Assembly: GCA_965230295.1 (NCBI GenBank)
Contig: OZ246001.1
Coordinates: 1,952,001-2,016,000, forward strand
Direction of reading: 5' to 3'
Length of the DNA stretch: 64,000 nucleotides
Source of the DNA: Marinicella sp.
Lineage (GTDB): Bacteria; Pseudomonadota; Gammaproteobacteria; Xanthomonadales; Marinicellaceae
Part shown: in pieces, positions 1-34,010 of the stretch
Position numbering within the stretch: position 1 is the first letter of the stretch
Layout: the number at the start of each line of letters is the position of its first letter
The notes under the pieces: generated by a model
Databases searched by the model: none
Told to the model about the DNA's origin: nothing
The model's input: only the letters and a program-made list of their open reading frames with translations
Position numbers and translations under genes: made by a program

Positions 1-1546
1 ATTCCAAGCCATGATTGACTTTTCTTTGTAGGCGTAGCAAGGGTCCCGGGTTCTTGGTACCAATGTCATCAGAACGCATGTGGGCCAAATGGGCCGGCAG
101 GATCAACTTGGATTCAACCAGTGAGAACAACAAGCACAAAATCACCACCCAGCCGATGGCTTCAAAAAACGAACCAAACAAGGTCCCAACAAACAACATC
201 GGTGCAAAAGCCGCTATGGTGGTCAACACGCCAAAGGTGGCTGGTGTGGCCACCCGTTGCGCGCCCACCACCACATTTTTCAATGAATGTCCATGATGCT
301 GGATTTCATAATAGGAGCTTTCGCCAATCACAATCGCATCATCAACCACGATACCCAAAACCATGATGAACCCAAACATACTCAACATGTTGATGCTGAT
401 GCCGGTCATGGGTAAAAACATGAATGCGCCCAAGAAGGCCACAGGCAATCCCAGCATCACCCAGAAAGCCACTTTCAGCCGCAAGAACAGCGTCAAAATC
501 AGCAGTACCAATACGGCACCTTGTAACATGTTGCGCTCCATCATGTCCAAGCGACCACGCACATAGTGGGAGGTGTCAGACCAGGTAGCCACCGACATGT
601 TGGGCGGCATTTTGTCTCGCATGCTGGCCACATAGGCTTTGACTTGATCAGAGATGATCAACACCGATTCATTTTCTACCGCGTTGACTTGGATGCTCAT
701 GGCCGGCTTGCCATCAAAGGTACCGATACCCCCGGTTTCAACAAAGCCATCTTTGATTTCAGCAAGGTCCGATAACAACAACCTTGAACCATCGGGGTTG
801 GTACGGATCACCGTTTGGGCAAACTCTTTGCCTGTATAGGATTGACCTACAGATCGCAACAGCACATCGCCCCGATCGGTTTTGATGGAGCCACCCGGCA
901 GATCGATGGAAGCCGCTCGCAATGCCGCTGCAATTTCATCAAAAGTGATTTGGTACTGGCGCAAGGTGTTTTCTTTGATTTCAATGGCTATCTCATAATC
1001 ACGACCACTGACCAAGGAGGCCATGGACACATCAGGTAAATCAATCAGGTCATCTCTGACATCGCGAGTGGCTTGCAGTAGATCATCTTCAGGCACATTG
1101 CCATAAACAGACAGGAACAGCACCGGTTGTTGGATCAAAATTTCACTGATGATGGGTTTTTCGGCTTCCTCGGGGAAGGAGTTGATGCCATCCACTCGGT
1201 TCTTGATTTCGGCCATGACATTTTTAACTTCATATTCACTGCCTATTTCAATGTTGGTTCTGGCAAAGCCTTCATTGGCCACACAGGTCGTTTTGTCTAT
1301 CCCTTCCAGTCCGGTAACGGCATCTTCGACTTTCACACAAATGCCTTTTTCCACTTCATCAGGTGCCGCGCCTGGATAGGTCATGCTGACCAGAACTTGA
1401 TTGACAGAGGTGGCTGGAAACATCTCTTTTTTTAAATTCCAGGCTGAATAAATCCCGCCAATCAGTAGTACCATCATCAATAAATTGGCCGCCACAGAGT
1501 TGCTGGCAAACCAATAGATGATCCCTTGATCCCATGACTTTTTCAT
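1..1546 (-). CDS. RND efflux permease (AcrB/AcrD/AcrF family), 5' part; runs off window start
   Basis: Manual translation from ATG 1546 gives MKKSWDQGIIYWFASNSVAANLLMMVLLIGGIYSAWNLKKEMFP, a typical RND N-terminus. ATGA overlap with the stop of the adaptor gene. Confidence 0.9.
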   Translation of the reverse strand, partial: MKKSWDQGIIYWFASNSVAANLLMMVLLIGGIYSAWNLKKEMFPATSVNQVLVSMTYPGAAPDEVEKGICVKVEDAVTGLEGIDKTTCVANEGFARTNIEIGSEYEVKNVMAEIKNRVDGINSFPEEAEKPIISEILIQQPVLFLSVYGNVPEDDLLQATRDVRDDLIDLPDVSMASLVSGRDYEIAIEIKENTLRQYQITFDEIAAALRAASIDLPGGSIKTDRGDVLLRSVGQSYTGKEFAQTVIRTNPDGSRLLLSDLAEIKDGFVETGGIGTFDGKPAMSIQVNAVENESVLIISDQVKAYVASMRDKMPPNMSVATWSDTSHYVRGRLDMMERNMLQGAVLVLLILTLFLRLKVAFWVMLGLPVAFLGAFMFLPMTGISINMLSMFGFIMVLGIVVDDAIVIGESSYYEIQHHGHSLKNVVVGAQRVATPATFGVLTTIAAFAPMLFVGTLFGSFFEAIGWVVILCLLFSLVESKLILPAHLAHMRSDDIGTKNPGPLLRLQRKVNHGLE

Positions 1547-2745
1547 TGTTCTGCCTCGGTGTTTTGAATCGAGGTTTGTTGATTGGATTCAGGTCCTGAC
1601 AAGCGCAACAGCATACCTATTTCAGGCGCTTGAATGGGCGTGGTGATGATTTGGTCACGGCTGTTAAGGCCTTGGTCAACATAAAAGAAATCATTGGTTT
1701 TGTGTGCCACATGCACTGATTTGATCGCCAATACGCCACCCTCTGCATAGACAGACAATTGATCATTGGGCATCATCCAAGCGGTGGGAATGGCATAGAC
1801 GCCTTGATATTCCATGCCCGTGATTTGGGCTTGTAGAAAGGTGTTGAATAACAGCTTATTGGCAAAAGGATCATCCACTTCAGCAACCGCATAATTCATC
1901 AGGGTGCGGCTGTCTTTACTGGATTCAAGGCGCTTGATCCACCCAGTGGTGACCTTTTGATCCTGATCATCATAAAAGGCCACTTGTAGGGGGCTTTGGT
2001 CCAAGGCCAAATCTTTGAGGTTTAATTTGGTGATGTCCTGGTTTGATAGTGGCAGCCTCACTTCCGCCACTTCGGTGCCAGCAATGTTGCCTAATTGCCC
2101 TGAGATTCCAACAAACTGGCCCAAGTCGATCGACTTGGTCAACACAGTCCCGGTAAAGGGGGCCTTGATTTCTGTTTTTTCTAAATCGCGTTTGGCCTTC
2201 ATCAGATCGGCTTTGGCAGCCCTTAAACTGGCTTTGGCGCCATCCAGTTGTGGGATGTTCAGCAGCAGGTCACTGGGTTTACCCGCTTTGCCAAAGGATT
2301 TCCAGTCTTTCAATGCCTGGTCAGATTTCGCTTGATCTAAATCCACTTGTGCCTGGGCACTGGCCAAATTGGCCTCAGCACGGGCCACAGCCACTTGATA
2401 ATCAGCCGGGTCAATTTGTACCAATAAGTCGCCTTGTTCAAAGGTGCCGCCAGCGGTAAAAGCCGGGCTCAATGACACCACTTTACCACTGATTTCAGCC
2501 AGTAAAGCTATTTGGCGTTTCGGCATCAAGATGCCTTGTGATTGAATTTGTAAAGTCAGGTCCGAGGGTGATACAGTGGTTGTTTCAACCAAAAAGCCCT
2601 TGGGTTTTTCCGGAATTTTCGCCGGCTCTGTTTTCATGCCCCCCATGATGTTTAATAGTACGATAACAACAATCAGTATCAATACAAAGGGCAGGAGTCG
2701 TTTTAACAGGGTCGGCTTGGGATGTTGGTGGCTGATTTTTTCCAT
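1543..2745 (-). CDS. RND efflux periplasmic adaptor (membrane fusion protein)
   Basis: N-terminal TM segment, lipoyl/hairpin motifs (AEISGKV...GDLLVQID; IKAPFTG), directly upstream of the RND permease. Confidence 0.92.
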   Translation of the reverse strand: MEKISHQHPKPTLLKRLLPFVLILIVVIVLLNIMGGMKTEPAKIPEKPKGFLVETTTVSPSDLTLQIQSQGILMPKRQIALLAEISGKVVSLSPAFTAGGTFEQGDLLVQIDPADYQVAVARAEANLASAQAQVDLDQAKSDQALKDWKSFGKAGKPSDLLLNIPQLDGAKASLRAAKADLMKAKRDLEKTEIKAPFTGTVLTKSIDLGQFVGISGQLGNIAGTEVAEVRLPLSNQDITKLNLKDLALDQSPLQVAFYDDQDQKVTTGWIKRLESSKDSRTLMNYAVAEVDDPFANKLLFNTFLQAQITGMEYQGVYAIPTAWMMPNDQLSVYAEGGVLAIKSVHVAHKTNDFFYVDQGLNSRDQIITTPIQAPEIGMLLRLSGPESNQQTSIQNTEAEQ

Positions 2746-2876
2746 GATTTTATCTGGTTTTATTGTAGATGTATTGTCTCAACAGCGGCCCCCTGATGCT
2801 GTACAGATCTTGTGATTCTAACGGTGTTATTTTAAGCGATTTCATACTTTGTAACCATAGATCATATGGCATGATG

Positions 2877-3311
2877 TTAAGCGGATAAATTCAATCCTGT
2901 CAGGTAACCTGAAAGTTGCTCTACATCAGCGGTTTCCAAGCTTAGCATGACATTTGTCGAAATTTGGTTAAGGGTGTTGCTGGCTTGCTGATAGGTTTTC
3001 AATCCACGGGCGGTTAATTTAACCAAGCTGACACGCGCATCTCTGGGGTTCACTTCTTTGCTGACCAAACCAATTTTTTCCATCGGGTTGAGCATTTTGG
3101 TGATGCCAGAAGCTGATCGGCACAACAGACTGGCCAAATCAATGCGTCGTTGCATCAGTTGCGGAGAGGCGTTCAAGTGGTGTAAGACCATGAACTCGGC
3201 AAGCCCAATCCCATGGACGGCGCCCAGGTTGGCATCCAGTTTTCTGTTGATGGCGGTGTTTTGGGTCCACATTTGGATCAGTGTCGTACTTTGTTGATTG
3301 ATGGTTGTCAT
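2877..3311 (-). CDS. MarR-family transcriptional regulator
   Basis: 144 aa winged HTH with MEKIGLVSKEVNPRDARVSLVKLTARG. Confidence 0.9.
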   Translation of the reverse strand: MTTINQQSTTLIQMWTQNTAINRKLDANLGAVHGIGLAEFMVLHHLNASPQLMQRRIDLASLLCRSASGITKMLNPMEKIGLVSKEVNPRDARVSLVKLTARGLKTYQQASNTLNQISTNVMLSLETADVEQLSGYLTGLNLSA

Positions 3312-3413
3312 TTATATTTCACAAGTATTTTACTGGTGCAGTATATGTGAAATAAACCATTTGTCAATGATAATTAGCTATGTGAGTTGTTGATCTGAGA
3401 TTTAGTTAGTATC

Positions 3414-3447
3414 GTCATCCCGGACTTGATCCGGGATCCAGTGTCTT
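3414..3447 (+). repeat. REP-like arm Y (left arm of the cargo-bearing X/Y element)
   Basis: GTCATCCCGGACTTGATCCGGGATCCAGTGTCTT; nearly identical to 14977-15011. Confidence 0.9.
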
Positions 3448-3557
3448 ACTGTTTTTGTCTGGTTTTTCATAATAACCAGACACATACATCTCATTAGTTA
3501 TAGTAAGATGTACAATTAATTTTAATATAAATGTTAATGCTTTATTAGTTTTTTCTT

Positions 3558-5106
3558 ATGGCCAAAATAAATTTAGATGCATTAATTCCGAGAGAAGATT
3601 TTGAAATAATCGGAAGCAGTACTAACTCAGCACAAATTGATAGACTTTCAGCAAATGATTTGTCTAATGAAATGATTTACCAATTGTTGCGAAAACCAGA
3701 TTTTCAAAGAGAAACAAATGAATGGGACGCCAAAAAAATTTATGAATTTATTGACAGTTTTCTAGAGGGTGATTTAATCCCGTCGATTATTTTATGGAGG
3801 AGTCAATCAGGATTAATTTTTGTTATTGACGGTGCCCATAGACTTAGTGCATTAATTTCATGGATAAATGATGATTATGGTGATGGAAAAATATCACAAA
3901 AATTTTATGAGAACAATATTACTGAAGATCAACTTGAAATAGCTGATAAAACAAGAAAACTAATAAACAAAAAGATTGGTTCGTACAGTGAGATTGCAAA
4001 TGCGCATATTAATGATAACTCAACACAAAGACATCTAAGCAGGGCAAAAAACATGGGTGTTATTGGCATTCAGGTTCAATGGGTTCCAGGAGATGCAACA
4101 AAGGCAGAGAATTCTTTTTTTAAGATTAACCAGAAAGCTTCAAAGATTGATCCAACAGAATTAAAACTTTTGGAGTCCAGAAAAAAGCCAAATTGTATTT
4201 CAGCAAGAGCAATTATACGAGCAGGTAAAGGACATAAATATTGGTCAAGTTTTAATGCAGAAAATCAAAACAGGGTTCAAGAGTTGGCAGAAGAAATTAA
4301 TACAATTTTCTTTACACCTCAACTAAGAACTCCAGTTAAGACGATGGACATTCCAATAGGTGGAAAAATATCTAGTTCTCAAACATTGCCATTGATCTTA
4401 GAATTTGTTAATCAAGTTAATAAAATACCAAATAATTTTAAAGAACATTTGGATGATGATATTTCTGGAAATGAAACTGTTAAATGTTTAATCAACGCAA
4501 GAAAAATTGCATGGCGAATTAATAGTGTTCATGCTTCATCATTGGGTTTACACCCGTTAATATATTTCTATTCTAAGGAAGGAAAATATAAAACAGCTTC
4601 ATTTTATTCAATTAACAAATTTATACTTGATTTAATTGATAGAAACAAACTGAATGAATTTATTTCTGCAAGAGAAGAATTCGAAAAATTAATCATAGAA
4701 TATGACTATTTGCCAATACAAATAAATAGAAAGTTTAGATCAGCTATTAAAGGGCTGCCTTATGTATCAGATTTCTATTTGACAGCTATGAAATTGATAA
4801 ATGATGGTCTAAATTATAAAGAGGCTATCAGACATATTATCAAGTTACATGAATATGATTATCTTGTTTTACAAGAAGAGAAGAATGAACAAGATTTTTA
4901 CAGGCGAAATTTTGACAAACTCAAAGTCAGCTGTTTTTATCGAAGAAGCATTAAAGACTGGAATAAAATGTAAGATCTGTAATGGATTTATTCATCAAAA
5001 CTCTATGACTACTGATCATATAATTCGTAAAGAAGATGGTGGACTTGGAAGCCCAAATAATGGACAGTTATCACATCCCTATTGTAATACAACATATAAA
5101 AACTAG
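3558..5106 (+). pseudogene. DUF262 (ParB-like, GmrSD-type) + HNH endonuclease, split by a frameshift near 4893-4921 (ORFs 3558-4973 and 4849-5106)
   Basis: DUF262 motifs PDFQR, IDGAHRL and FFKIN in the first ORF. CKIC...DHIIRKEDGG...NGQLSHPYCN (HNH) lies in the overlapping +1 frame. Visibly AT-rich relative to the flanks. Confidence 0.8.
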
Positions 5107-5172
5107 TAATCTAACTAAAGTATTTAGAAGCCTAAATTTCAAAATTCATGGAAAAAGAATTGTGTTGTCTCA

Positions 5173-5205
5173 AAGACACTGGATACCAGCCTTCGCCGGT
5201 ATGAC
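5173..5205 (-). repeat. REP-like arm X (right arm of the cargo-bearing X/Y element)
   Basis: AAGACACTGGATACCAGCCTTCGCCGGTATGAC; nearly identical to 15036-15068. Confidence 0.9.
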
Positions 5206-5213
5206 AGAGCAAA

Positions 5214-6017
5214 TTATCGGTATTGATTCACCAGATTCTTCAAATCAACACAAGCCTGTTCAGCGGCTTGGGCGTAATTCTCTTGGTTGTCGCCGGCATA
5301 AATGATGCCGCGTGATGAAGAAATGATCAGGCCTTTGCGATCTTGTCGCAGTCCGGCTTTTAAGGTGGCTTCAACATCACCACCTTGGGCGCCGATGCCC
5401 GGAATCAACAAAGGCATGTTGCCAACCAATTGCCTGATTTGCGCCAGTTCTGATGGGTAAGTGGCACCCACCACCAACAGTAAATTGTGGTTGCTGTTCC
5501 AATCGCTGCTGGCTTTTTGTGCCACCGCCTGGAACAAGGAACCACCATTGGCCAATGTCAGGTTTTGTAATTCACCTGATCCTGCATTGGAGGTTTTACA
5601 CAGCACCACCACACCTTTGTCAGCGAACTTCGAATAAGGCTCGATGGTGTCACCACCCATATAGGGGTTAACCGTCACGGCATCAGCCTGGTAACGATCA
5701 AAAGCTTCTGCTGCATATTGTTCGGCGGTACTGCCAATGTCGCCACGTTTCGCATCCAGAATCACCGGAACCGCAGGGTATTGATCATGGATATAGCTTA
5801 TGATGTCAGTCAATTCCTGTTCAGCGCCCATGGCAGCAAAATAGGCAATTTGTGGTTTGAAGGCACACACATGGTTGGCGGTGGCATCAACGATGCCTTT
5901 CAACCAGGTCAATAAATTCAGATCCAAAGCAGCGATTTTTTCTGGATTGGGATCCAGGCCCACACAGACCAGTGAGTTGTTGTTCTCTTGTGCTAGTTCT
6001 AATTGCTCGATAAACAT
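5214..6017 (-). CDS. pyrF: Orotidine-5'-phosphate decarboxylase (subfamily 2)
   Basis: VCVGLDP, FKPQIAYF, LDAKRGDIGST, PGIGAQGG, SSRGI motifs. Confidence 0.97.
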   Translation of the reverse strand: MFIEQLELAQENNNSLVCVGLDPNPEKIAALDLNLLTWLKGIVDATANHVCAFKPQIAYFAAMGAEQELTDIISYIHDQYPAVPVILDAKRGDIGSTAEQYAAEAFDRYQADAVTVNPYMGGDTIEPYSKFADKGVVVLCKTSNAGSGELQNLTLANGGSLFQAVAQKASSDWNSNHNLLLVVGATYPSELAQIRQLVGNMPLLIPGIGAQGGDVEATLKAGLRQDRKGLIISSSRGIIYAGDNQENYAQAAEQACVDLKNLVNQYR

Positions 6018-6089
6018 GGACTTGAAAATAAAAAGAATGCGTCTATTTTACAGTAAGGGAACTTTGTTTGAGTCAGTGAATCAGAACAG

Positions 6090-7433
6090 ATGATGAAAAA
6101 AACAGCATTTATATTCTTAATGGCCATGCTCGGTACAGCACAGGCTACCTTACCAGCAGCGGTCAATGGTCAAAAGGTACCATCTTTGGCACCCATTTTG
6201 GAACAGGTGACGCCAGCAGTGGTTAACATCAACACCCAATCAGTACAGTATGTGCGTTCGCGTAACAGTGATTTTTACAATTGGTTTTATGGTTTACCGA
6301 ACACACCTCGGGAACGGGTAACCCAGTCACTGGGTTCCGGTGTGATCGTTGATGCCATCAAGGGTTACATCCTCACCAACCACCATGTGGTCAATGAAGC
6401 CGATGACATTTCGGTGGTGTTGCATGATGGCAGGACTTACAGCGCGACCCTGATCGGTTCCGATGATGGCACCGATGTGGCAGTGATTCAAATTGAAGCA
6501 GACAACTTAACGGCTTTGCCCTTGGCAGATTCCGAACAATTGCGGGTTGGTGATTTTGTCGTGGCCGTTGGTAATCCCTTTGGTTTGGGGCAAACTGTCA
6601 CCTCAGGCATCATCAGTGCCCTGGGCCGAACCAGCCTGAGTGGTTTGGGGTATCAGAACTTCATTCAAACTGACGCCTCCATCAATCCAGGCAACTCAGG
6701 CGGTGCCTTGATTGATTTGAACGGTTCATTGGTGGGTATCAACACGGCCATTTTTTCACCCTCCGGTGGCAACGTGGGTATAGGTTTTGCCATTCCGTCA
6801 TCTTTGGCACAGCGGATGATGCGTCAATTGGTTGAATATGGCACGGTGCGCCGTGGCTCGTTGGGCATGGGTGTCCAAGACATCACTGAACGTCTGGCCA
6901 GGGCTTTTGATGTGGGGCAGAAACAAGGGGTTTTGGTGACCTCAGTCGACCCGGATTCGCCGGCCGATCGGGCTGGTTTGAAAGTGGGTGACATCATCAC
7001 CGAACTCAATGGTGACCGGATCAGCAGTCAAAAGCAATTTCAGAATTACGAGGGTTTGATTGAGTTGGACAGTCAGGTCAATATTGACTATTTACGCAAT
7101 GACCGTTCAAGACAAGTCAAGACCTTGATCACCGAAGCCGATCGCAATGAAATCAAGGGCAATGAGTTGCACCCATTGCTCAAGGGCACCTTGCTCAGTA
7201 ACTTACCGGTGCAATACCGAGATCGCTTTCAAGGTGTTTTGATCGAAGAAATCGAAAGGGGCTCGTCAGCTTGGGAATTGGGCTTGCGGGCTGGAGATTT
7301 GATCACCGCAGTCAACAAAGCTGAGATCAACAGCCTGAAGCAACTGACCCAAGGTGTCGAGCGGTCAAGAAAAGAACCTTTGTTGAACATATATCGAAAT
7401 GGTCGCAACTATTTGTTACCATTGGAAGACTGA
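6090..7433 (+). CDS. degQ: DegQ/DegP (HtrA) serine protease with two PDZ domains
   Basis: Signal peptide, LGSGVI, TNHHVV, QTDASINPGNSGG, PDZ domains. Confidence 0.9.
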   Translation: MMKKTAFIFLMAMLGTAQATLPAAVNGQKVPSLAPILEQVTPAVVNINTQSVQYVRSRNSDFYNWFYGLPNTPRERVTQSLGSGVIVDAIKGYILTNHHVVNEADDISVVLHDGRTYSATLIGSDDGTDVAVIQIEADNLTALPLADSEQLRVGDFVVAVGNPFGLGQTVTSGIISALGRTSLSGLGYQNFIQTDASINPGNSGGALIDLNGSLVGINTAIFSPSGGNVGIGFAIPSSLAQRMMRQLVEYGTVRRGSLGMGVQDITERLARAFDVGQKQGVLVTSVDPDSPADRAGLKVGDIITELNGDRISSQKQFQNYEGLIELDSQVNIDYLRNDRSRQVKTLITEADRNEIKGNELHPLLKGTLLSNLPVQYRDRFQGVLIEEIERGSSAWELGLRAGDLITAVNKAEINSLKQLTQGVERSRKEPLLNIYRNGRNYLLPLED

Positions 7434-7828
7434 TGCCAGGCGTGGAAGACCTCAATAAGCTATTAAGCCACATGGAGCCCCGTTGTATCGATGGTGAGTT
7501 CGTCTTTTGTTCGGTTGCCGGGCCAGTTTCGGACTATTTGGATTTAGTACCTTTGGCCACCTGCCAGGAGCAAGAAGGCTTGACTTTGGTGTTGCCTCGT
7601 GATCAGGCTGATCAAGCAGGTTTATCGTATGCCGGCGTTTTCAAACAAATCACCCTGTCTGTTCATTCATCACTGCACGCAGTGGGGTTGACGGCTGCGG
7701 TTGCCACACAACTGGCAACAAAAGGCATCAGTGCCAATGTGATCGCGGCTTATTACCATGATCACATTTTTGTACCTGCTGATAAAGCCAACGAAGCCTA
7801 TTTGGCATTACAAGCATTATCAGATTGA
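7433..7828 (+). CDS. ACT domain protein (DUF2241-type)
   Basis: EQEGLTLV, ITLSVHSSLHAVGLTA, ISANVIAAYYHDHIFV. Confidence 0.85.
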   Translation: MPGVEDLNKLLSHMEPRCIDGEFVFCSVAGPVSDYLDLVPLATCQEQEGLTLVLPRDQADQAGLSYAGVFKQITLSVHSSLHAVGLTAAVATQLATKGISANVIAAYYHDHIFVPADKANEAYLALQALSD

Positions 7829-7831
7829 TTT

Positions 7832-9901
7832 TCACTGTTGACGGAATTCTGCTGCTTTGCTAGCCAGATCATTAACCACTTGTGATGGCGCATTTCCAGC
7901 AGCAATCAAATCGGTGTTTTCATACGGATCGATGGTTAAATCATATAACTCTTGTTCACCAGTTTCAGATTCGAATAACTTGTAAGATCCATCAGAGATG
8001 ACCCATTCTTCGGTGTTGTTGGTCTTGCGTTCGGAGAATTGGAATTGACGGGTACTGGCGGATTCATTCAACAACGGTATAAAAGATGTGCTGTCATTGA
8101 TCTGGTCAACGTTTACCCCTGCCAATGCTGCAAGGGTGCTGAATAAATCAGTGGTGTTCAGCAGGGCGTTTTCGCGTTCACCCATGCGGCCCACACCAGG
8201 ACCAGAAATCATAAAGGGTATGTTGATTCCGCCTTGGTTCAATGACCCTTTCACTTGCCCCCTTTGGTAAGGTGATTGAGCCACTTCACTGGGTGTTCCA
8301 TTGTCTCCGATAAACACCACAATGGTATTTTCAAAGCTGCTTGGGTCCAATGAATCCAAAAGCCGGCCAATTTCAGTGTCCATCGCTTCAATGGCAGCAA
8401 AATAGTAGGGCATGGGGTTGGCGTCAATGTCTGCTGTTGTGCCAGACAGTTGGCGGTTGTGTAAGTGTTCCGGCGGCAAGTGAAAAGGCGTATGTGGTGC
8501 ATTGAAAGCCAACCACAAAAACCATGGTTGGTTTTGCTCATTGGTCCAATCGATGGCCAAATCGACTAATTTTGAAGTGACGTATTCGGTTTGGGCTGTT
8601 TGGGTGCCATTGGTGGTCAAGTCCCAATCGAAATAACTCGGGACACCGCCAGATATAATTCCTGCATAGTGGCTGATACCAAGTTTGGCAGGGTGGTTTA
8701 AATCATTGTTTCCAGGGCCTACATGCCATTTGCCGATGATGGCATCTGAATACCTATTGGGTAGGAGTTGATGGATGTATGATTGTAAGGAAGTCTCATC
8801 TTCAGACAGCACGTTACCGGGAAAGAAAACCCCAGTCCTGTTGCTGTATTTGCCTGTTAAGATGCCTGCTCGTGTCGGGCTGCAAGTTGGGCTGGACCAA
8901 GCATTCTCAAACACCAGACCACTGTTGGCCAGACCATCAAGAGTGGGCGTGCTGGGTTGTTGCGCAGAGATGTTGTACAGCGAAGATGCATCTTTTCCCA
9001 AATCATCGGCAATCAACAACAATATATTCGGGGCAGGGGCTTCATCACAAAGCGGATTGCCCACACGGGTTAAACGCGTTAGGGTCTGTTTACCTTGTCC
9101 AAACCCAGTGAGTTGTGATTGGTAATCCAGTTTACCGTATTCACACCCCAGTTCGATTTGTATGTTGCCCCATGGTTGTACCTGGACATCTTGGGGATCA
9201 AAATCTGCACCAAAACGTCCCCCGCTGGTGACATACACATCTGTTATGTCGATGGCTTGGCCATTTTGCTCACCAGAACCAAAAAACCAGGCCTGATCGC
9301 CATTGACATCATAGCTGAACCAATAAACCAGGACTCGATCATCTATCAGTTTCTCGATCACCAACCCTTCGCCGTTGTGTGTTTGATCAAACCAAGATCC
9401 TGTAACTGCTGATGATGTAGCCGATGGGTTGGTACAGTCCAAGCCTGCAAGCGTGGTGATGCGGGTCAGGGCTTGGCTGCCCTGGATGCCATCAATGGTA
9501 TATGTTGCATTGGCTGAGAAACAATCAAACCAATTGATGGTCAAAGAACCGGATGACGACACCTCTACATCTTCAGAATTGAATTGATCGCCAAACGCTG
9601 CACCTCTTGCCAACAGTACCTCGTTGAATACAATCGAATCCTCTATCACTGTACCCACAGCAAAAAACCAACGCTGTGCCCCTGATTCATCATAGGTAAA
9701 CCAATAGGCTAATGCCGTATCATCTTGCAAAACTTGAAGCACAAACCCCTCACCGTTGTGGCTGGCGTCATACCAAGATCCGCTCATGTTGGCGTCGACT
9801 ACAACCTGCTCTTGTGCAAAAACATGGAAGCAGCAGGTCAACATGTATGAGTAAATCCAAATTTTTTTTAGAATCACTTTATTCATTAGGTAAGAATTCA
9901 T
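7832..9901 (-). CDS. Secreted sulfatase with two tandem N-terminal GSWYD..GEG domains
   Basis: PNILLLIADDLG, CSPTR formylglycine motif, GKWH, GDNG. Exact start codon uncertain. Confidence 0.9.
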   Translation of the reverse strand: MNSYLMNKVILKKIWIYSYMLTCCFHVFAQEQVVVDANMSGSWYDASHNGEGFVLQVLQDDTALAYWFTYDESGAQRWFFAVGTVIEDSIVFNEVLLARGAAFGDQFNSEDVEVSSSGSLTINWFDCFSANATYTIDGIQGSQALTRITTLAGLDCTNPSATSSAVTGSWFDQTHNGEGLVIEKLIDDRVLVYWFSYDVNGDQAWFFGSGEQNGQAIDITDVYVTSGGRFGADFDPQDVQVQPWGNIQIELGCEYGKLDYQSQLTGFGQGKQTLTRLTRVGNPLCDEAPAPNILLLIADDLGKDASSLYNISAQQPSTPTLDGLANSGLVFENAWSSPTCSPTRAGILTGKYSNRTGVFFPGNVLSEDETSLQSYIHQLLPNRYSDAIIGKWHVGPGNNDLNHPAKLGISHYAGIISGGVPSYFDWDLTTNGTQTAQTEYVTSKLVDLAIDWTNEQNQPWFLWLAFNAPHTPFHLPPEHLHNRQLSGTTADIDANPMPYYFAAIEAMDTEIGRLLDSLDPSSFENTIVVFIGDNGTPSEVAQSPYQRGQVKGSLNQGGINIPFMISGPGVGRMGERENALLNTTDLFSTLAALAGVNVDQINDSTSFIPLLNESASTRQFQFSERKTNNTEEWVISDGSYKLFESETGEQELYDLTIDPYENTDLIAAGNAPSQVVNDLASKAAEFRQQ

Positions 9902-10087
9902 GATTAATCATACCGTATTTTTAACGGGTCATGGTATTCCAACGCTGGGGTCGGAAATGCGTTGACACAGAAATAAAAAATTTCATTTGAGGGCCCAATG
10001 CCGCCTATTTCACTGATGTTATTTACTGTCGAAAAATAAGCTGTTGTTGCTGTCAATTGACCCATTGGACAGGGAACATGAAGAATG

Positions 10088-10236
10088 AAGGAATGTTCTT
10101 GGGGCTTCATTCACTTTTGTTCCAGACAAAAGTGAAAACGACCACGGCGAACATGACTTGCTACCTCGCGCTCTTCGCCTCTGATTCGCATTGCTCACCA
10201 ACCGGCTCGGCGGGTCAAGCTGCTCAGCAGCTTTCC
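10088..10236. repeat. Modular MITE-like repeat, copy A (minimal 149-nt form)
   Basis: AAGGAATGTTCTTGGGGC...AAGCTGCTCAGCAGCTTTCC, homologous to copies at 11549, 38466, 46272 and (inverted) 61304-61718. Confidence 0.92.
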
Positions 10237-10288
10237 CCCGCTGAATCAGTTATAATCATTTCTGTTGAGCACAAAACATTTAATCAAT

Positions 10289-10681
10289 ATGAAAGAAGAC
10301 CTCAAAGCAGAACTCAAAGATAAACTGGATCCGGTCAGTTATGAAGTGATAGTGAACAAAGCCACAGAGCGACCTCACACGGGCGAATACAACCTCAATT
10401 ATCAAGACGGCCAATACACCTGTAAAGCCTGCGGGGAGGTGTTGTTTGACAGTTCGTCGAAATTTGATGCGGGTTGTGGCTGGCCCAGTTTTGATCAAGA
10501 AATAGAAGCCGGTAAAATCAAAGAAGTGTTTGATGAATCTCACGGCATGCGCCGCACAGAAATTGTTTGTGCCAACTGCGAAGGCCATTTAGGACATGTG
10601 TTCAATGATGGCCCAACAGAAACGGGCCTGCGCTATTGTGTGAATTCCGTTTCGCTGGATTTTGCAGCCAGCGAATCATGA
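10289..10681 (+). CDS. msrB: Peptide-methionine (R)-S-oxide reductase
   Basis: [38 protein letters not shown]. Confidence 0.97.
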
Positions 10682-10872
10682 AGGCATGGCTTAAAATCGT
10701 ATTGACGTTAGCGGCACTGACGTTGGCTGAGCCTGGTCGGGCCATGACGGGTATAGATTCGGTGGCTTATTTGTGGGTGATTGGCTTGATATTAATGGGC
10801 ATTTTGGGCTTGCTGGTGTGGGTGATTAAATTTCTGAACCGTGTAAAAGAGGATTCAAAAAAACATGAATGA
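10678..10872 (+). CDS. Small membrane protein
   Basis: MKAWLKIV..., signal-like segment plus one TM; overlaps the msrB stop and the GST start. Confidence 0.55.
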
Positions 10873-11527
10873 AACCATTAAATTAATCATCGGTAACAAA
10901 AATTATTCATCTTGGTCTTTGCGACCTTGGCTGCTGCTGTCTGCTCACAACATTCCATTTGAGGAAATTGTTGTGCCTTTGTATACTGACCAATCAGCTG
11001 CTGAATTGGCCCGTTATTCAGCCGCTGGAAAAGTCCCTGTTTTGCACCATGGTGATGTGGTCATTTGGGATTCGCTGGCCATTTGTGAATATGTATCAGA
11101 ACAGTTCTTGGATGGTAGCGGTTGGCCAAATGACCCTGTTGCCAGGGCATATGCCCGCTCATACAGTGCGGAAATGCATTCTGGTTTTTTTGCCATCCGT
11201 GAAAATTTACCAATGAATTGCCGGGCATCGGATCGGAAGGTTACATTGACGGATGACATCAACAAAGAAGTGTCGCGATTGGATCATATGTGGACTGAAC
11301 TGCGTAACAAATATGCTGCTCAGGGACCGTGGCTATTAGGAAAATTTTCCATCGCAGATTGCATGTTCGCCCCTGTGGCCATTCGGTTCCATACCTACAA
11401 CATTCAGGTGTCTGAAACAGCTGGTCAATACATGCAACAGGTTCTAGAGTACCCAAAAGTTCAACAATGGATGGCCGAAGGTGAAGAAGAAACAGAGGTC
11501 ATCGAAGGATTTGAAGTTGGCCAGTAA
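10865..11527 (+). CDS. Glutathione S-transferase family protein
   Basis: IGNKNYSSWSLRPW, GKVPVL, WDSLAICEY, FSIADCMFAP. Confidence 0.93.
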   Translation: MNETIKLIIGNKNYSSWSLRPWLLLSAHNIPFEEIVVPLYTDQSAAELARYSAAGKVPVLHHGDVVIWDSLAICEYVSEQFLDGSGWPNDPVARAYARSYSAEMHSGFFAIRENLPMNCRASDRKVTLTDDINKEVSRLDHMWTELRNKYAAQGPWLLGKFSIADCMFAPVAIRFHTYNIQVSETAGQYMQQVLEYPKVQQWMAEGEEETEVIEGFEVGQ

Positions 11528-11548
11528 AGAATTGAGTCAATCTATAGA

Positions 11549-11784
11549 AAGGAATGTTCTTGGGGCTTCATTCTGGTTCATGGTCTGACAGGTCTTCATA
11601 TTTGCTGCGCAAATAAACCGACCTTTACAGACTATTGTCTGAGCAGTTGCTTCGCACTGCATGTCTGTTCTAGACAAAAGTGAAAACGACCACGGCGAAC
11701 ATGACTTGCTACCTCGCGCGCTTCGCCTCTGATTCGCGATGCTCACCAGCCGGCTCGGCGGGTCGAGCTGCTCAGCAGCTTTCC
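11549..11784. repeat. Modular MITE-like repeat, copy B (236 nt; core + 92-nt module)
   Basis: Direct alignment with copies A and C. Confidence 0.92.
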
Positions 11785-11859
11785 TGTGTACACTTTTTTG
11801 CCATTGATTGATTGACAGATCCGCCTTATGATTCTTCATTTTCAATGCTGATCAATTTT

Positions 11860-12558
11860 ATGAGTAAAAATATAAAACATGTTTTCACCCTTTTAAAAAC
11901 GATTGCGATCATATTTTTATCAGTGGTGGTGTTCAATTTTTTCTTCGATCGTGCCAACCAGCCCACTGAAGAAGAACAGATAGAAGCCATGCTGGGTGAA
12001 CTTGAGAAACAAGTCAAAACAGTTACCACCAGCAAAGACTCATTTGAGTATCCCATCCAGCGCCGCCCAGCAGCTGAGTATAGGGTGACAGAAAAATCAA
12101 TAGAGGATGCGAGGGGTGATCAGTACCTGTTTATCTGTGCAGTATCTTCGGCAGTTGGCATGGTTCAGAGGGCCCAGACACTGGTGAATCTGGGATTGGA
12201 TCATCAAAATGAATTAACGGTTGATGTGGATAAAATGGTGTTGATGCTGGCCCCCGCTGAGACACTGTGTGAAGAAAGCCGGGTCATTGCCATAGGCTAT
12301 TTTGTACCTGCAGGGACTGGTTGGACAGGCATTTCATCCGGAGACTGGCAATGGTTGGTTCGTACGTCCCATGCCAAAGTGAGTGCCGATGAGATTGAAG
12401 CGACACAGCTATATATGTCAAAAAAGGCAGAATTTATTGCTGATTTTGGCATGATGGACTACCCCGATAAGCTGGATGAGTTTGTGGCTGAGCAATTAGG
12501 CAGAGACCCCAAGTACGTGACGGCTGGTATGTGGAACGATGATTTTGTGAAGCGATGA
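11860..12558 (+). CDS. Hypothetical membrane-anchored protein
   Basis: Long ORF with N-terminal TM; probable start MSKNIKH. Confidence 0.7.
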   Translation: MSKNIKHVFTLLKTIAIIFLSVVVFNFFFDRANQPTEEEQIEAMLGELEKQVKTVTTSKDSFEYPIQRRPAAEYRVTEKSIEDARGDQYLFICAVSSAVGMVQRAQTLVNLGLDHQNELTVDVDKMVLMLAPAETLCEESRVIAIGYFVPAGTGWTGISSGDWQWLVRTSHAKVSADEIEATQLYMSKKAEFIADFGMMDYPDKLDEFVAEQLGRDPKYVTAGMWNDDFVKR

Positions 12559-12628
12559 AGTGCCTAATGCATACATGTGGCCAACCACAAAACACCACAG
12601 GCTACCTGAGCAACAGGAAAGTGGCGCT

Positions 12629-13051
12629 ATGAAACAAACCATCGTACACATCGCTTTGGTGGTTAAAGATTACGATGAAGCGATTGAATTTTATACCCAG
12701 AAACTGAACTTCACCTTGCTCGAAGACCAGTACCAAGCCGAGCAAGACAAAAGATGGGTGGTGGTGGCGCCACCTGGCTCTCATGGCACCACAATCCTGT
12801 TGGCCAAAGCATCCAAACCGGAACAACAGCCGTTCATTGGAAACCAGTCAGGAGGCCGGGTGTTTTTGTTTCTGAACACCGATGATTTTTGGCGAGACTA
12901 CCATGCGATGGTGGCCAAAGGCATACATTTTGTGCGAGAACCCAAGCAGGCTGATTATGGCCTGGTGGCGGTGTTTGAAGATTTGTATGGTAACTTGTGG
13001 GATTTGTTACAACTCAACGATGATCACCCCATAAGCAAAAGATCCGGATGA
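12629..13051 (+). CDS. VOC/glyoxalase family protein
   Basis: HIALVVKDYDEAIEFY...YGLVAVFEDLYGNLWDL; GGA-type SD upstream. Confidence 0.9.
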   Translation: MKQTIVHIALVVKDYDEAIEFYTQKLNFTLLEDQYQAEQDKRWVVVAPPGSHGTTILLAKASKPEQQPFIGNQSGGRVFLFLNTDDFWRDYHAMVAKGIHFVREPKQADYGLVAVFEDLYGNLWDLLQLNDDHPISKRSG

Positions 13052-13115
13052 TCATCACCTCAGTATAGGGCAGTGGTTTATAATTGTTGTAACGACAATT
13101 AACAGGAGCCTAACC

Positions 13116-13517
13116 ATGTCTACCAATTTCATTGCCTGGGGGATCTATTTTTTATTGGCCGCACTGGCTGTCTACTTCAATTGGCACGCAGAAATTCTTC
13201 AGTTTTCAGGTCAGCTGGGACTGGTTAAGTTGGTCATTCTGTTGATTTATATAGGCTTTGTCATTTACAGCTATTATTGCAGTAAGCGTGAAAACATTTT
13301 TCGATCAGTGAAATCAATGGGCCAACTACATTGGGGTCGTCAGATCATGATAGACCTGTATCTGGGCTTTTTGCTGAGTTTATTCATCATATTTTTGCAC
13401 CAAGGACTGCTTGTGATGGCCTTGTGGGCCTTACCTATTCTGTTGTTTGGCAACTTGGCAACTTTGTTGTATTTTGTCATTCATTTTGAATCATTGGTCA
13501 GTCATTTTATGGCCTAA
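13116..13517 (+). CDS. Membrane protein (DUF1475-like)
   Basis: Four hydrophobic segments, WGRQIMIDLYLG, FGNLATLLY; AGGAG SD. Confidence 0.7.
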   Translation: MSTNFIAWGIYFLLAALAVYFNWHAEILQFSGQLGLVKLVILLIYIGFVIYSYYCSKRENIFRSVKSMGQLHWGRQIMIDLYLGFLLSLFIIFLHQGLLVMALWALPILLFGNLATLLYFVIHFESLVSHFMA

Positions 13518-13585
13518 CCAGCCATCAGTTGTCCAAAGTACGACATCAATAGTATAATGGCTTGTCCAAACATCAGGAGCATCCC

Positions 13586-14041: not shown

Positions 14042-14081
14042 ATCGGCATAAGTTATTTGCTGTTCGAACAAAGTTGATTTC

Positions 14082-14936: not shown

Positions 14937-14976
14937 AGATACAAGGAATTGGTTCATGCTGACGGTTGTCACTACC

Positions 14977-15068
14977 GTCATCCCGGACTCCGATCCGGGA
15001 TCCAGTGTCTTTGTCGTATATGAAGCAACCATTTAAAGACGCTGGATACCAGCCTTCGCCGGAATGAC
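14977..15068. repeat. Compact X/Y REP-doublet element (22-nt spacer)
   Basis: GTCATCCCGGACTCCGATCCGGGATCCAGTGTCTTT-N22-AAAGACGCTGGATACCAGCCTTCGCCGGAATGAC; the arms base-pair. Confidence 0.92.
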
Positions 15069-15158
15069 GTTCGTACTTTAGCCTGAGTACGGGTACATTT
15101 AAAGTCACATGATATTGCCTTGGTGTTAAAATAAGGTGACAAACCTCAAAGTGCAAAC

Positions 15159-15948: not shown

Positions 15949-15999
15949 GGATGGTGGTTAAGAAGTCATTCTTGATGATTACATTTAGAGGAGAAAATA

Positions 16000-16428: not shown

Positions 16429-16603
16429 ACACACTCGAAACAAGCGTCATGACCCGGTTGTCCGAAAGGCCCCATACTGCTGTAGGCCGCATGGTGGATC
16501 AGAACTCAGTCCGAAAATAAGGTGTTTTTGTGATAATCTGTGGTCATAATCATCAATGTGCTCCAAAGACACCACGGGTGAATTGATGACATAGGAGAAA
16601 CAA

Positions 16604-17218: not shown

Positions 17219-17251
17219 AAGCCAGAGAGGAGTTGTTGGTATAACAGGTGT

Positions 17252-18271: not shown

Positions 18272-18295
18272 CTCAATGTGTTCCGGTCAATTCAA

Positions 18296-19752: not shown

Positions 19753-19760
19753 GGTATTAA

Positions 19761-31479: not shown

Positions 31480-32308
31480 AATCAATCGAGTCAGAGGTGC
31501 TTGATTTATATTGTGTTGGGATTTTTGGCGATCAGCCTGACTCACAATTTATTATCGTTCGAATTGCCGGCGTAGGCCGGCATCCAGCCAGGTAGGTTGG
31601 GCTGAACAACGTGAAGCCCAACAGGGATCTGCAATTAAGGTTTGTTGTTGGGCTTCGCAAGCTCAGCACCAACCTACGTTAATAGCCAGACATCGTCAGA
31701 CCAGTTAAAGTCGGAATCAATGGGGTCAGAGTCATTAATCAGATAGTAACCACCATCAAAAAGGCGCTGGATCCCGGATCAATGACGATAGTAGAACAAT
31801 GTCATTGCGAGCGGAGCGTGGCAATCTCATGAACCTGTAAAATGTTTGGAGATTGCCGCGGTCGTTCCTCCCTCGCAATGACGGAAGCACAAAGGAATAA
31901 CTCCGTTATGTGTGGTGGGCTATTCCCTCCATATGTATTGTTTAAAACCTCAGTTCCGTCTTACCGGCGCAGGCCGGTATCCAGTGTCTTTTTACATTAT
32001 TTGATCCTACAGATAATTATGGAAGCTTCGCTTGTTTGCTGCGCAAACTGGATCCCCGGGTCAAGCCCGAGGATGACGGTAGTGAAAGTAGGTCATTCCG
32101 ACCGAGTATAGCGAGTGGAGGAAAAAATAGCAGAATAGCTGTTTTTTCACGCGAAGCGACCCGTAGGGTGAACGGCAGGAGCCGTGAATTAATCTCATGA
32201 ATCTGGAGAATAGTTATCAGATTGCCGCGTCGCTGCGCTCCTCGCAATGACTCAAGTTTCTGAGAATGTCTGGTCTTTAGGGGATTCCTCGGCTGCGCTC
32301 GGGATGAC
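31480..32308. repeat. Mosaic cluster of REP-like palindromes (BIME/REPIN-like)
   Basis: X/Y doublets at 31561-31786 and 31958-32077; GTAG-REP pair at 31592-31677; AATCAATGGGGTCAGAGTCA at 31715; GTCATTGCGAG...CTCGCAATGAC at 31801-31882; further units at 32092-32251 and 32281-32308. Confidence 0.9.
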
Positions 32309-32435
32309 ATGTTAACGCTCCAGCCAAATCGAGCGCCATATGTTCAAAATATCAGCCACTGCAGCGCCGAGCTTCTTGCAGATAAAGGGTATTTAAGCCA
32401 TAAGTTATAATGATAAATTTACTGATGTCCTAATT

Positions 32436-33395
32436 ATGAATGCGACACAACATTTGACTTTGCGGCTACTCATTGTTCTGATGGTTTTGGTTCATCAACC
32501 ATGCCGCGCTGAGAAACCAACAGCCCGCTGGGGGCATGTATTTATTTATGACCCGGCAAGAGATGAAATATTGATGTTTGGCGGAGCAAAAGGTCGCCAA
32601 CAATATTTGAATGATACATGGATTTGGAGAGCTGGGAATTGGCAGCAGCAAATGACAGGTGGGCCAGGGGCGCGTGGCTTCAGTGCAGCAACCTATCATT
32701 CGGGTCGTGAAACCATAGTCATTCATGGCGGGCGGGATAATGATAATAAAAGTCTTTCAGATACCTGGGAATGGAACGGTAAAAAGTGGAGTTTGTTGAG
32801 TGCAAGCAGTGATTTTGTCGCTGACCATCATAAAATGACGTATTTGCCAAAAGAAGGAACCATACTTGCATTTGGCGGTTGGGATGGCCAGGGTGTGAAT
32901 GGCCATACCTGGATATGGGATAATGAATGGCAGAAGATTCAGACTTTATCGCCACCAGCGCGTTCTGCATTTGGAATGACCTATGATCCAACCCGAGACG
33001 CTGTCATCGTTTATGGTGGGTTGTGGATTCAAGGCCAATATGCAGATGTATGGAAGTGGGAAAAAGGTCTGTGGCAAGCGTCGAGTGGGCCTTATGATAA
33101 TTCGTCTTTGGATCACCATGAGTTGGTGTTTGATCATAAAATCAATAAAATCATAGGTTTTGGGGGTAAGAATTACCGATACCAGGCCCAAACCAAAACT
33201 TGGCAAGTTAAAGGTGGAAAAGTCTCTGAGTTATCACGCACTGGCCCCAATGCGCGATACAGCATTGGGCTTACTTATCACACCAAACTTAACCGGGCGT
33301 ATTTATTTGGTGGTAAAAAACAAGAGCAGGGAAAAACACTTCCACTGGATGACTTTTGGTATTGGGATGGGGAAAGTTGGTATTTGATTGAATAA
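32436..33395 (+). CDS. Secreted kelch-repeat beta-propeller protein
   Basis: Signal peptide; six repeats of the form PxAR..H.M.YD...(F/Y)GG...DTWxW. Confidence 0.85.
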   Translation: MNATQHLTLRLLIVLMVLVHQPCRAEKPTARWGHVFIYDPARDEILMFGGAKGRQQYLNDTWIWRAGNWQQQMTGGPGARGFSAATYHSGRETIVIHGGRDNDNKSLSDTWEWNGKKWSLLSASSDFVADHHKMTYLPKEGTILAFGGWDGQGVNGHTWIWDNEWQKIQTLSPPARSAFGMTYDPTRDAVIVYGGLWIQGQYADVWKWEKGLWQASSGPYDNSSLDHHELVFDHKINKIIGFGGKNYRYQAQTKTWQVKGGKVSELSRTGPNARYSIGLTYHTKLNRAYLFGGKKQEQGKTLPLDDFWYWDGESWYLIE

Positions 33396-33418
33396 GCATA
33401 ATGTACTTCTCTTTTATT

Positions 33419-34010
33419 GGAAATCAATGGGGTAAAGGTGCTCGTTAGGGCAAGGCAGCACTGTAAGAGCCCTGAGCCATAACATCACTATTTCGTCTTG
33501 CCGGCGTAGGCCGGCATCCAGTGTCTTTCATATGGTATTCAATTATTGTTAATACTCAACTTAAGAGTTTTCTAAAAGACACTGGATCCCGGATCGCCAA
33601 AAGTAGGTCCATTAAGGAAGTCCGGGCAGGAATTGATCCAATCAATTCTCTGCATTCACCACGATGACGATAGGTGGCAAGATCAGTGGTAAATAAAGGG
33701 TCAGTATCCTTGAGCAGGATTTTTCTTAGTTCGTCATCCTGCGGCTTGACCGCAGGACCCAGGTGCGGGATGATAAAAACATTTGGATATTGTCCTAAAC
33801 TTAAAGGTCCACTTGCCTGGATTCTGTGGTCAAGCCACAGAATGACGGTAGAAGGAGCTTAACATTCCAACCTACGACTATTTCTGTTTCGAATTACCGG
33901 CGCAGGCCGGTATCTAGCGTCTTTTAACATTTTTTGATCCTACAGATAAATATGGAAGCTTCGCTTGTTTGCTGCGCAAACTGGATCCCGGATCGAGTCC
34001 GGGATGACGG
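33419..34010. repeat. Second mosaic REP-like cluster
   Basis: X/Y doublets at 33495-33668 and 33891-34008; GTCATCCTGCGGCTTGACCGCAGG...CTGTGGTCAAGCCACAGAATGAC at 33733-33846. Confidence 0.9.

Follow-up and report, generated by a model that had tools for sequence, protein, structure and literature searches.

A frameshifted DUF262-HNH gene between two inward-facing CGTC-tagged hairpin repeats in a Marinicella genome

Here we describe a foreign, AT-rich gene of the DUF262-HNH type in Marinicella sp. (GCA_965230295.1) that is bracketed by two short hairpin repeats, arm Y on its left and an inverted arm X on its right. The pair stands at 3413-5206 of the window, the stretch of 64,000 nucleotides (nt) of contig OZ246001.1 (positions 1,952,001 to 2,016,000) that was analysed; coordinates are those of the window unless they are given as genome positions. 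Our preferred reading, which we hold to be moderately likely, is that foreign DNA lies between the partners of a native heterodimer of Ssn-related motifs (SRMs), with a frameshifted gene of a mobile family as its cargo and enzymes of the Ssn type encoded elsewhere in the genome. This arrangement is another instance of a known configuration, in which DNA lies between the partners of a dimer of repetitive extragenic palindromic sequences (REPs) or a gene lies between two NTS motifs, and it is not a demonstrated new capture system. A first-pass annotation of the same DNA had proposed that the arms act as a gene-capture or composite mobile system served by an enzyme encoded elsewhere. Its description of Y followed by inverted X around an AT-rich DUF262-HNH segment is confirmed by sequence, GC content and Pfam, and its statement that no integrase, insertion sequence or tRNA lies at the borders is borne out by a tRNA scan of positions 1-20000, which found none, and by the genes neighbouring the bracketed segment, among which there is no integrase or insertion sequence.

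Results

The arms have the architecture of CGTC-tagged REPs and Ssn-related motifs

As two hairpin variants, X and Y follow one architecture, consisting of a (C/T)GTC tag, an 8-bp stem that is initiated by AT, a loop of 4 nt (X) or 5 nt (Y) and the tail CCAGTGTCTT, and they face each other with their tags outside (Table 1). In arm Y the tag CGTC (3413-3416) is followed by the stem ATCCCGGA/TCCGGGAT around the loop CTTGA; the arm is recovered by nhmmer with an E-value of 1.5e-10, its hairpin folds with -10.2 kcal/mol (z -4.3), and over its 35 nt it is 100% identical to a genome copy at 2336247-2336281. Arm X, read on the minus strand, has the tag TGTC (5203-5206), the stem ATACCGGC/GCTGGTAT with one mismatch and the loop GAAG; it is recovered with an E-value of 3e-10, folds with -6.8 kcal/mol (z -2.8), is 97% identical to the genome copies 2857951 and 2095762, and starts 8 nt after the pyrF stop codon. 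Given these identities to other genome copies, the arms are native, while the cargo has a GC content of 30%.

Published systems are compared here and below as far as the parts of each paper that we draw on describe them. For CGTC-tagged REPs, Di Nocera (2013; PMC3733652) gives a CGTC tag (TGTC or CCTC being tolerated), an 8-9-bp stem with complementary A/T at positions 1-2, a 4-5-nt loop and a CCA tail, and both arms have such a tag, with an 8-bp stem, a 4- or 5-nt loop and a CCA tail. These REPs are described as multi-copy and mostly extragenic, as sitting mostly downstream of genes, and as forming mainly dimers of the HH type (tags outside), with spacers of 20-100 bp that are often unrelated in sequence; insertion of DNA between the partners of a dimer is explicitly stated (PMC3733652). 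In the parts of the same paper that we cite they flank no RAYT, hence the statement in 2013 that they ‘lack a dedicated transposase’. The NTS or Ssn-related motifs have the same architecture, namely CGTC, an AT-initiated palindrome and a C-tail (Chenal, 2025; PMC11893778). The published degenerate SRM motif is matched by Y at 3413-3441 (+) and by X at 5179-5206 (-), although this motif is loose by itself, with 64 matches in the genome against 23 in a reversed-genome control. To judge from their letters, the arms are CGTC-tagged REPs, the same thing as the NTS-like Ssn-related motifs.

Table 1. Features of the locus and of the window, in window coordinates
Feature	Position	Strand	Remarks
Arm Y, CGTC-tagged REP / Ssn-related motif	3413..3447	+	CGTCATCCCGGACTTGATCCGGGATCCAGTGTCTT
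Arm X	5172..5206	-	plus-strand letters AAGACACTGGATACCAGCCTTCGCCGGTATGACA; reverse complement TGTCATACCGGCGAAGGCTGGTATCCAGTGTCTT
AT-rich foreign segment	3448..5171	+	~30% GC, 1724 nt, in the spacer position of the probable Y/X dimer
471-aa open reading frame, DUF262/GmrSD_N part	3558..4973	+	Pfam PF03235, E 1.3e-13; out of frame after about residue 453
85-aa open reading frame, HNH domain	4849..5106	+ (+1 frame)	Pfam PF01844, E 1.9e-8; aligns to the C-terminus of 516-aa relatives
Frameshift site	4914..4920	+	2-nt gap against each of 3 aligned homologue loci (DNA and protein alignments)
9-bp inverted repeat TGTCTGGTT / AACCAGACA	3456..3482	+	5' of the nuclease gene; overlaps a weak promoter-like site
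marR-family regulator gene, left flank	2877..3311	-	Pfam PF01047
marR promoter-like site TTGACA-16-TATACT	3340..3367	-	11/12 match; between marR and arm Y
pyrF, orotidine-5'-phosphate decarboxylase, right flank	5214..6017	-	Pfam PF00215, E 1.1e-30
Compact ‘empty’ Y/X heterodimer	14976..15069	+	tags outside, spacer ~23 nt; arm order and orientation as at 3413-5206
Unit cluster, same superfamily	31559..34009	.	including 31957-31984 (+), 32048-32078 (-), 33494-33521 (+), 33576-33596 (-), 33732-33762 (+), 33889-33924 (+), 33976-34009 (-)

Y and X units pair habitually in this genome

Genome-wide, nhmmer finds 50 units, 32 of type X and 18 of type Y. A strict structural scan required GTC[AG]T, then a stem of 8 bp or more that opens with complementary AT, 3-7 nt of loop and a tail of the CCA type. 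It recovers 69 units, compared with 2 when the genome is reversed, and exposes two more hairpin variants, Z and W; merged units number 92 in 4.0 Mb. Specificity is confined to this subset of GTCAT hairpins with a long stem, a short loop and a CCA-type tail, a generic scan for GTCAT followed by any hairpin being uninformative (345 matches against 359 in the reversed control).

Strict units that lie close together (less than 500 nt apart) are mostly convergent, with tags outside, in 14 of 17 cases, the others being tandem (2) or divergent (1). Compact dimers have gaps of 20-110 nt, and the 1724 nt that separate the two arms are beyond this usual range. It is the behaviour of one class of Y units that suggests a partnership nonetheless. 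All seven Y units with a TGTCTT tail have an X neighbour that is likewise TGTCTT-tailed, five of them convergent (including 3413-5206) and two divergent, with gaps in the convergent pairs of 20, 23, 47, 108 and 1724 nt, and the compact Y/X dimers at genome 1966976, 2769825 and 2857898 have the same order and orientation as the pair at 3413-5206. Because the partnering of TGTCTT-tailed Y units is without exception, we consider it fairly likely that the Y/X pair is a real dimer. Two claims of the first-pass annotation hold up here, namely that the same arms recur in the same order and orientation in a compact element, and that the foreign 1.7-kb segment occupies the spacer position of a genuine, recurrent pair. 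As single-stranded DNA (ssDNA), the compact dimer in the window folds into a single long hairpin of -19.4 kcal/mol (z -3.45).

The composition of the segment points the same way. The DNA between the arms has 26-35% GC against 44-53% in the flanking DNA, and the drop is abutted by both arms. Among 58 AT-rich islands, defined as at least 1 kb with GC below 0.34, the one at 3413-5206 is alone in being bounded by units on both sides, and four islands carry a unit at a single edge; under random placement of the units about 0.015 islands bounded at both edges are estimated. Compact-dimer spacers show no homology among themselves or with the island's edges, and no target-site duplication is visible at the ends of the eight doublets inspected.

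Several further features of the repeat population were seen. In the cluster at 31559-34009, X, Y, Z and W units are densely interspersed with other short repeats, resembling a BIME/NIME array, and 8 of the 50 hidden Markov model (HMM) units found by nhmmer are located there. Five Z/Z dimers (genome 97271-97384, 489593-489705, 1607992-1608104, 2094505-2094617 and 2381368-2381482) have a constant spacing of 61-63 nt and unrelated spacers, and their stems differ through paired, compensatory changes. A module of about 22 nt with the core CCTTAAGGGACCTAC sits inside the loop of Y- or W-type hairpins at genome 217017, 723025 and 2327273, as if a second small element targeted hairpin loops. A sub-class of Y with the self-hairpin tail CCAGTTTGCGCAGCAAAC (genome 309958, 1985976, 2129546 and 2327368) is partnered by W, by X or by nothing, and never by a TGTCTT-tailed X.

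The cargo is a frameshift-split member of a widespread family

In its relatives the HNH domain is fused to the DUF262 part, and here the two are split across frames. Since the 2-nt gap puts both domains in different frames, this copy is most likely a pseudogene, and the nuclease gene that had been reported between the arms is present as regards its DUF262 and HNH domains while not being intact. At 4914-4920 the contigs of sequencing run X1 show no indel, though X1 probably represents the source sample itself. The 471-aa (amino acid) open reading frame (ORF) gives a partial match to PADLOC NsnA (3.7e-9). With the type IV restriction enzymes of the GmrSD family (Machnicka, 2015, PMC4619093; BrxU, PMC8565348) the gene shares an N-terminal DUF262/GmrSD_N part, a C-terminal His-Me-finger nuclease and the character of a standalone AT-rich gene; unlike in those enzymes as described there, the C-terminal domain scores as a canonical HNH (PF01844) with no DUF1524 score in the cargo, and in place of a single GmrSD-like polypeptide PF03235 and PF01844 are found in different frames of a frameshifted copy.

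A database search found 5058 relatives at E <= 0.001. The best 120 of these are mostly 513-519 aa long with PF03235 and PF01844, are 53-83% identical to the query, and come, where the source is named, from Bacteroidota, Proteobacteria and Acidobacteriota. A scan of one genome per species gave 490 encoding stretches confirmed by tblastn, and the best 80 of these include Cyanobacteria, Patescibacteria and archaea, the 516-aa family being 48-77% identical (tblastn) across bacterial phyla and archaea. At the 70 loci with full flanks the gene has a GC content of 0.28-0.43 regardless of that of its flanks (0.30-0.66), a pattern that fits a frequently moving gene. The combination of conservation and composition in this family is unusually strong for a standalone gene.

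Within the Marinicella genome the gene is single-copy, the only other PF03235 match being a different gene. A search of 40 other genomes, including 23 from the same genus, gave no DNA match to the island (query positions ~750-2440). At other loci, nucleotide similarity to the island ends at the limits of the ORF (3557-5108, 67-75% identity) and is silent on the original vehicle. The 80 homologue loci (544 kb) contain no strict unit. A scan for inverted repeats around the gene, from which 10 short-flanked loci were dropped, gave best scores of 0-17 at the remaining 70; with a score of 12 for the window itself, the measure does not discriminate. Two homologue loci, L023 and L033, share a similar short inverted repeat, GTTGG[CG]CG...TTT, of near-noise score, which hugs the ends of the DUF262-HNH gene, lying at most 70 nt upstream and at most 3 nt downstream.

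Other dimers are filled, one of them with an Ssn-like gene

Five dimers in the genome, including that at 3413-5206, are filled with 244 nt to 1.7 kb of DNA. Other cargo-filled doublets, the absence of which the first-pass annotation had named as grounds for abandoning its proposal, thus exist in four further cases, of 244, 432, 451 and ~1062 nt. The largest of the four (genome 2335064-2336196) consists of convergent X arms around ~1062 nt of 0.38 GC with ORFs of 102 and 125 aa. The 102-aa ORF has homologues (63% aa) in G010 and G012, which lie at other loci with no units by the family criteria nearby, one loose AT-only pattern match lying 300 nt off in G010; the site itself is short and unit-free in G006, and in G003 the same flanking gene is accompanied by a compact Z/Z dimer. 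Two W-type convergent pairs, at genome 3332890-3333373 (432 nt) and 3550511-3550806 (244 nt), contain no convincing ORFs, the 432-nt interior having a GC of 0.31 and no ATG-started ORF of at least 35 aa, and these interiors may be decayed cargo. NCBIfam offered no useful name for the 102-aa and 125-aa ORFs, the Ssn-like proteins or the DUF262 ORF. A further convergent pair, 1934496/1937336, brackets a 534-aa gene of normal GC.

The remaining filled dimer (genome 3081958-3082460) is formed by convergent Z-type CGTC hairpins with 451 nt between them, and encloses a gene for a 96-aa GIY-YIG protein (genome 3082096-3082386) with a plus unit 113 nt upstream and a minus unit 52 nt downstream. This convergent bracket is the same arrangement as that around the DUF262-HNH gene. 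Of the five GIY-YIG (PF01541) matches in the genome, four fall in short open frames (96-117 aa), and three of these four genes are embedded in tagged hairpin repeats. We call such small, single-domain GIY-YIG proteins Ssn-like, after SsnA, a 94-aa GIY-YIG protein that binds the motif as ssDNA and, cutting the motif strand alone, does so a few nt upstream (PMC11893778). The Ssn-like proteins of the genome are encoded at 3082096, 1943944, 1617938 and 840634.

The association between gene and unit extends to relatives. A search of 121 genomes of the order with the 96-aa protein gave matches in 40, and among 29 relatives' loci of the gene a strict unit is present in 19, within 200 nt in 18, on both sides in 9 and as a convergent bracket in 6, whereas the same scan found none in 103 control loci (23 pyrF loci, 72.6 kb, and the 80 DUF262-HNH loci). 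This agrees with the published survey of ssnA homologues, 71% of which have the motif nearby and 42% on both sides (PMC11893778). By analogy, the small single-domain GIY-YIG ssDNA nucleases of the Ssn type encoded elsewhere in the genome are the putative cognate enzymes of the arms. Of the two candidate enzymes that had been put forward, a GIY-YIG nuclease is right in kind and already published (PMC11893778), and an HUH RAYT/TnpA-REP transposase does not agree with what the genome contains. There is a single Y1_Tnp (PF01797) match (genome 1669462-1669713), in a RAYT-like protein of 187 aa; its gene has on either side an inverted repeat of its own, 21 nt long and of another sequence than the arms (1669221-1669868), and the nearest X/Y unit, at 1615702, is ~54 kb away. 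The core of that repeat, GACTTCAGTC, occurs 41 times in the genome and represents a second, separate REP family.

A PDB search with the Ssn-like proteins gave a weak match to UPF0213 (1zg2, 1.5e-4) and spurious WD40 rows. Two relatives carry tandem copies, or fragments, of Ssn-like genes at distances of a few hundred nt (G015, 1031063-1031928; G054, contig C120, 12901-13655), and in G015 X-like units precede each copy. A RAYT as the enzyme of the X and Y arms is thus not supported, the sole Y1_Tnp gene being flanked by the other repeat and distant, and neither is insertion of an IS110-type element into a REP, there being no PF01548 match in the genome. The literature search found nothing joining GIY-YIG with ‘repetitive extragenic palindromic’. 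ComEC and DprA are present, which is weak support for transformation, as E. coli has both too.

The slot downstream of pyrF varies between species

Among 23 same-genus loci, 11 have hlyD immediately downstream of pyrF, 2 have marR-hlyD there and 3 a MerR/TipAS-like gene, and the rest continue with other genes (G018, G006) or run into contig ends. The MerR/TipAS-like genes lie in G003 (L005:111-887), G021 (L006:328-1083) and G004 (L098:1242-2060), counted downstream of pyrF. The slot is a hot spot of variation, seen across 23 different species and not strains, and marR is absent from most of them. In G021 a degenerate X-like half-unit (E 0.022) stands right after the pyrF stop, with no Y partner.

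None of the 23 loci shows the expected empty doublet, or another cargo between the same arms, between marR and pyrF, which is a weak test, the relatives being only 67-78% identical at pyrF and none closer than 78%. Nor did the search for an excised circle or an empty site by read mapping succeed. Metagenome pattern scans with the left junction and with the pyrF 3' end brought up no conspecific contigs, and a single run (X1, probably the source sample, as Logan contigs) contains the stretch; it holds no excision or empty-site joint, though contigs cannot reveal rare circles. The sole joint in X1 that skips the island, 3447->5170 with 18 other letters, does not mark an empty site; it arises from the compact dimer at genome 2857898-2857988, which maps onto the arms.

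The flanks of the island include, beyond marR and pyrF, a gene of the HlyD family and one for a DegP-like protease. The block of arms and island is positioned upstream of the marR promoter-like site at 3340-3367, and a sequence like this site also occurs upstream of marR in G022 and G023. Upstream of the nuclease gene there is a weak promoter-like site (3477-3504, 9/12). No Rfam family was found in positions 1-20000.

Discussion

A model that would account for these observations begins with a pre-existing HH heterodimer of Y and X, between the partners of which foreign DNA may have entered by illegitimate or break-associated integration. A dedicated capture machine would not be required, insertion between the partners of REP dimers being already on record. 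If Ssn recognises X and Y, it would, by analogy with Neisseria, cut imported ssDNA a few nt 5' of each arm, on the plus strand to the left of Y and on the minus strand to the right of X. Such one-sided cuts on each strand would therefore leave homology on one side of the block only, so that transformation would do little to replace, remove or pass on a block of SRM, gene and SRM. This could explain why a dead gene persists between the arms. In N. meningitidis, NTS-gene-NTS DNA transforms about five-fold less well when SsnA is present (PMC11893778).

A number of points weigh against this model. We infer, and do not observe, that the dimer pre-dates the island; no insertion scar is identifiable, and no X/Y doublet, filled or empty, occupies the pyrF slot of the same-genus relatives, with the reservation about their distance made above. 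The Ssn-like paralogue that is itself enclosed in a dimer is flanked by Z-type hairpins and not by X or Y, and both the strand-specific cleavage by Ssn and the effect on transformation come from Neisseria only. Finally, the units are crowded in this region, the 64-kb window taking in 10 of the 50 found by HMM, so that the rough chance of finding a convergent X within 2 kb here is ~8% and not 0.4%.

This density bears most directly on the alternative that survives best, which is nonetheless unlikely in our view, namely that the bracketing is a coincidence. X would then be the usual REP after pyrF and Y an independent REP upstream of the marR promoter, the two never having formed a dimer, and either the foreign gene landed between solitary REPs or the REPs were added beside the gene later. 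CGTC REPs are indeed placed mostly downstream of genes (PMC3733652), and X follows pyrF closely; moreover, G021 keeps its half-unit at the same place with no Y partner, and the pair around the 534-aa gene indicates that gene-sized brackets arise without foreign cargo. However, coincidence sits poorly with the partnering of TGTCTT-tailed Y and X in seven of seven cases, with an order and orientation equal to those of three compact dimers, and with a GC drop that is abutted by both arms; it would also have to produce the single unit-bounded island in 58 where random placement gives about 0.015.

We regard it as improbable that Y and X are the ends of a composite mobile or capture element, in which an enzyme acting in trans, Ssn/GIY-YIG or another, moves the cassette or loads its spacer after the fashion of mobile insertion cassettes or of single-strand elements of the IS200/IS605 type. 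The Ssn-like gene itself has the arm-gene-arm form, an architecture that the Discussion of PMC11893778 describes as identical to that of insertion sequences. Several dimers of the genome enclose 244-1745 nt, and dimers fold into long single-strand hairpins. CGTC REPs, for their part, had no known transposase in 2013, as far as the cited parts of PMC3733652 go. Against this, the island is single-copy and unmatched in the other genomes, its homologue loci are free of strict units, and the homologues of the ORF in the second filled dimer lie elsewhere with no such units nearby. There is no evident target-site duplication, the spacers of compact dimers are mutually unrelated, and no excision or empty-site joint is seen in the sole run; the published Ssn cuts in one strand orientation, and no strand-transfer activity is described in the parts of PMC11893778 that we cite. 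The proposal of the first-pass annotation that the arms form a gene-capture or composite mobile system is thus not supported, given a single-copy island, units at 0 of 80 homologue loci, 1 arm-bounded island in 58 and an X/Y doublet at 0 of 23 pyrF slots.

A minimal mobile element, a concept from Neisseria, consists of different cargo between the same conserved flanking genes across strains. Replacement of the slot in this manner, by homologous recombination through the pyrF and marR/hlyD flanks with block and arms coming together from a related donor and the arms serving as passengers or as short extra homology, is in our estimation an improbable explanation. The content downstream of pyrF does differ between species, the slot being empty in 11 + 2 loci, with a MerR/TipAS-like gene in G003, G021 and G004 and others in G018 and G006, and ComEC and DprA are present. 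But no donor-like relative with the block was found, the metagenome pattern scans were empty, and the arms are typical of this genome's own copies; the Ssn model predicts poor transfer of such a block, and slot replacement is silent on how the gene first came between the arms.

We likewise give little credence to SRM HH dimers as preferred landing pads or cassettes, where Ssn would nick extruded hairpins at the outer tags and DNA would be captured between the partners or the arm-gene-arm unit moved. If this were true, the Ssn gene with its own two arms would represent the autonomous form, from which compact dimers would derive by emptying, and the five filled dimers (244 nt to 1.7 kb) would be snapshots of the process.

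Returning to foreign DNA between the partners of a native heterodimer, the locus can be placed among known systems. With the CGTC REPs of PMC3733652, which in the parts cited are listed mostly from Alphaproteobacteria, it shares the tag, AT-initiated stems, loops and CCA tail, the predominance of HH dimers, the occurrence of heterodimers, unrelated spacers and the lack of a flanked RAYT; it differs in the insertion of a whole 1.7-kb foreign gene and in a subclass of dimers with the extended complementary tail CCAGTGTCTTT. The match to the motif, small GIY-YIG genes flanked by units and, in Neisseria, motif-gene-motif around a gene other than ssn are shared with the NTS/SRM systems of PMC11893778, whereas the host here is of a different order, has ~50-92 copies and not hundreds, and contains the co-existing variants X, Y, Z and W. 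Unlike in the Neisseria NTS-gene-NTS arrangement as described there, the bracketed gene is foreign, frameshifted and restriction-like, not one for a surface protein.

Two further classes of element can be compared. With REPIN-RAYT systems (Bertels and Rainey, 2011; PMC3116915) the locus and its genome share inverted doublets foldable into a long hairpin and a repeat-flanked, single-copy enzyme gene; in those systems, as far as the parts cited describe them, the RAYT is flanked by the same REP and the doublets, which replicate as units, have a GTAG-type tag and conserved spacers, whereas here the tag is CGTC, the only Y1 transposase is flanked by another repeat and the spacers are not conserved. 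[quoted passage not shown] Unlike these, the island is single-copy and lacks both a target-site duplication and a conserved interior, and its ends are generic REP units that are not derived from insertion sequences.

The biology of this repeat superfamily has been opened only recently, no enzyme being known for it in 2013 as far as the cited parts of PMC3733652 go, and Ssn nucleases having been described in 2025 (PMC11893778). To this the locus contributes an example and not a mechanism: a motif-gene-motif arrangement outside Neisseria, around a foreign and since-decayed gene of the defence type. The genome that carries it is a small test bed, with ~50-92 units, three or four Ssn-like paralogues and four hairpin variants, and may serve to address which Ssn pairs with which hairpin, whether the motifs shield a gene from recombinational loss, and whether dimers attract insertions.

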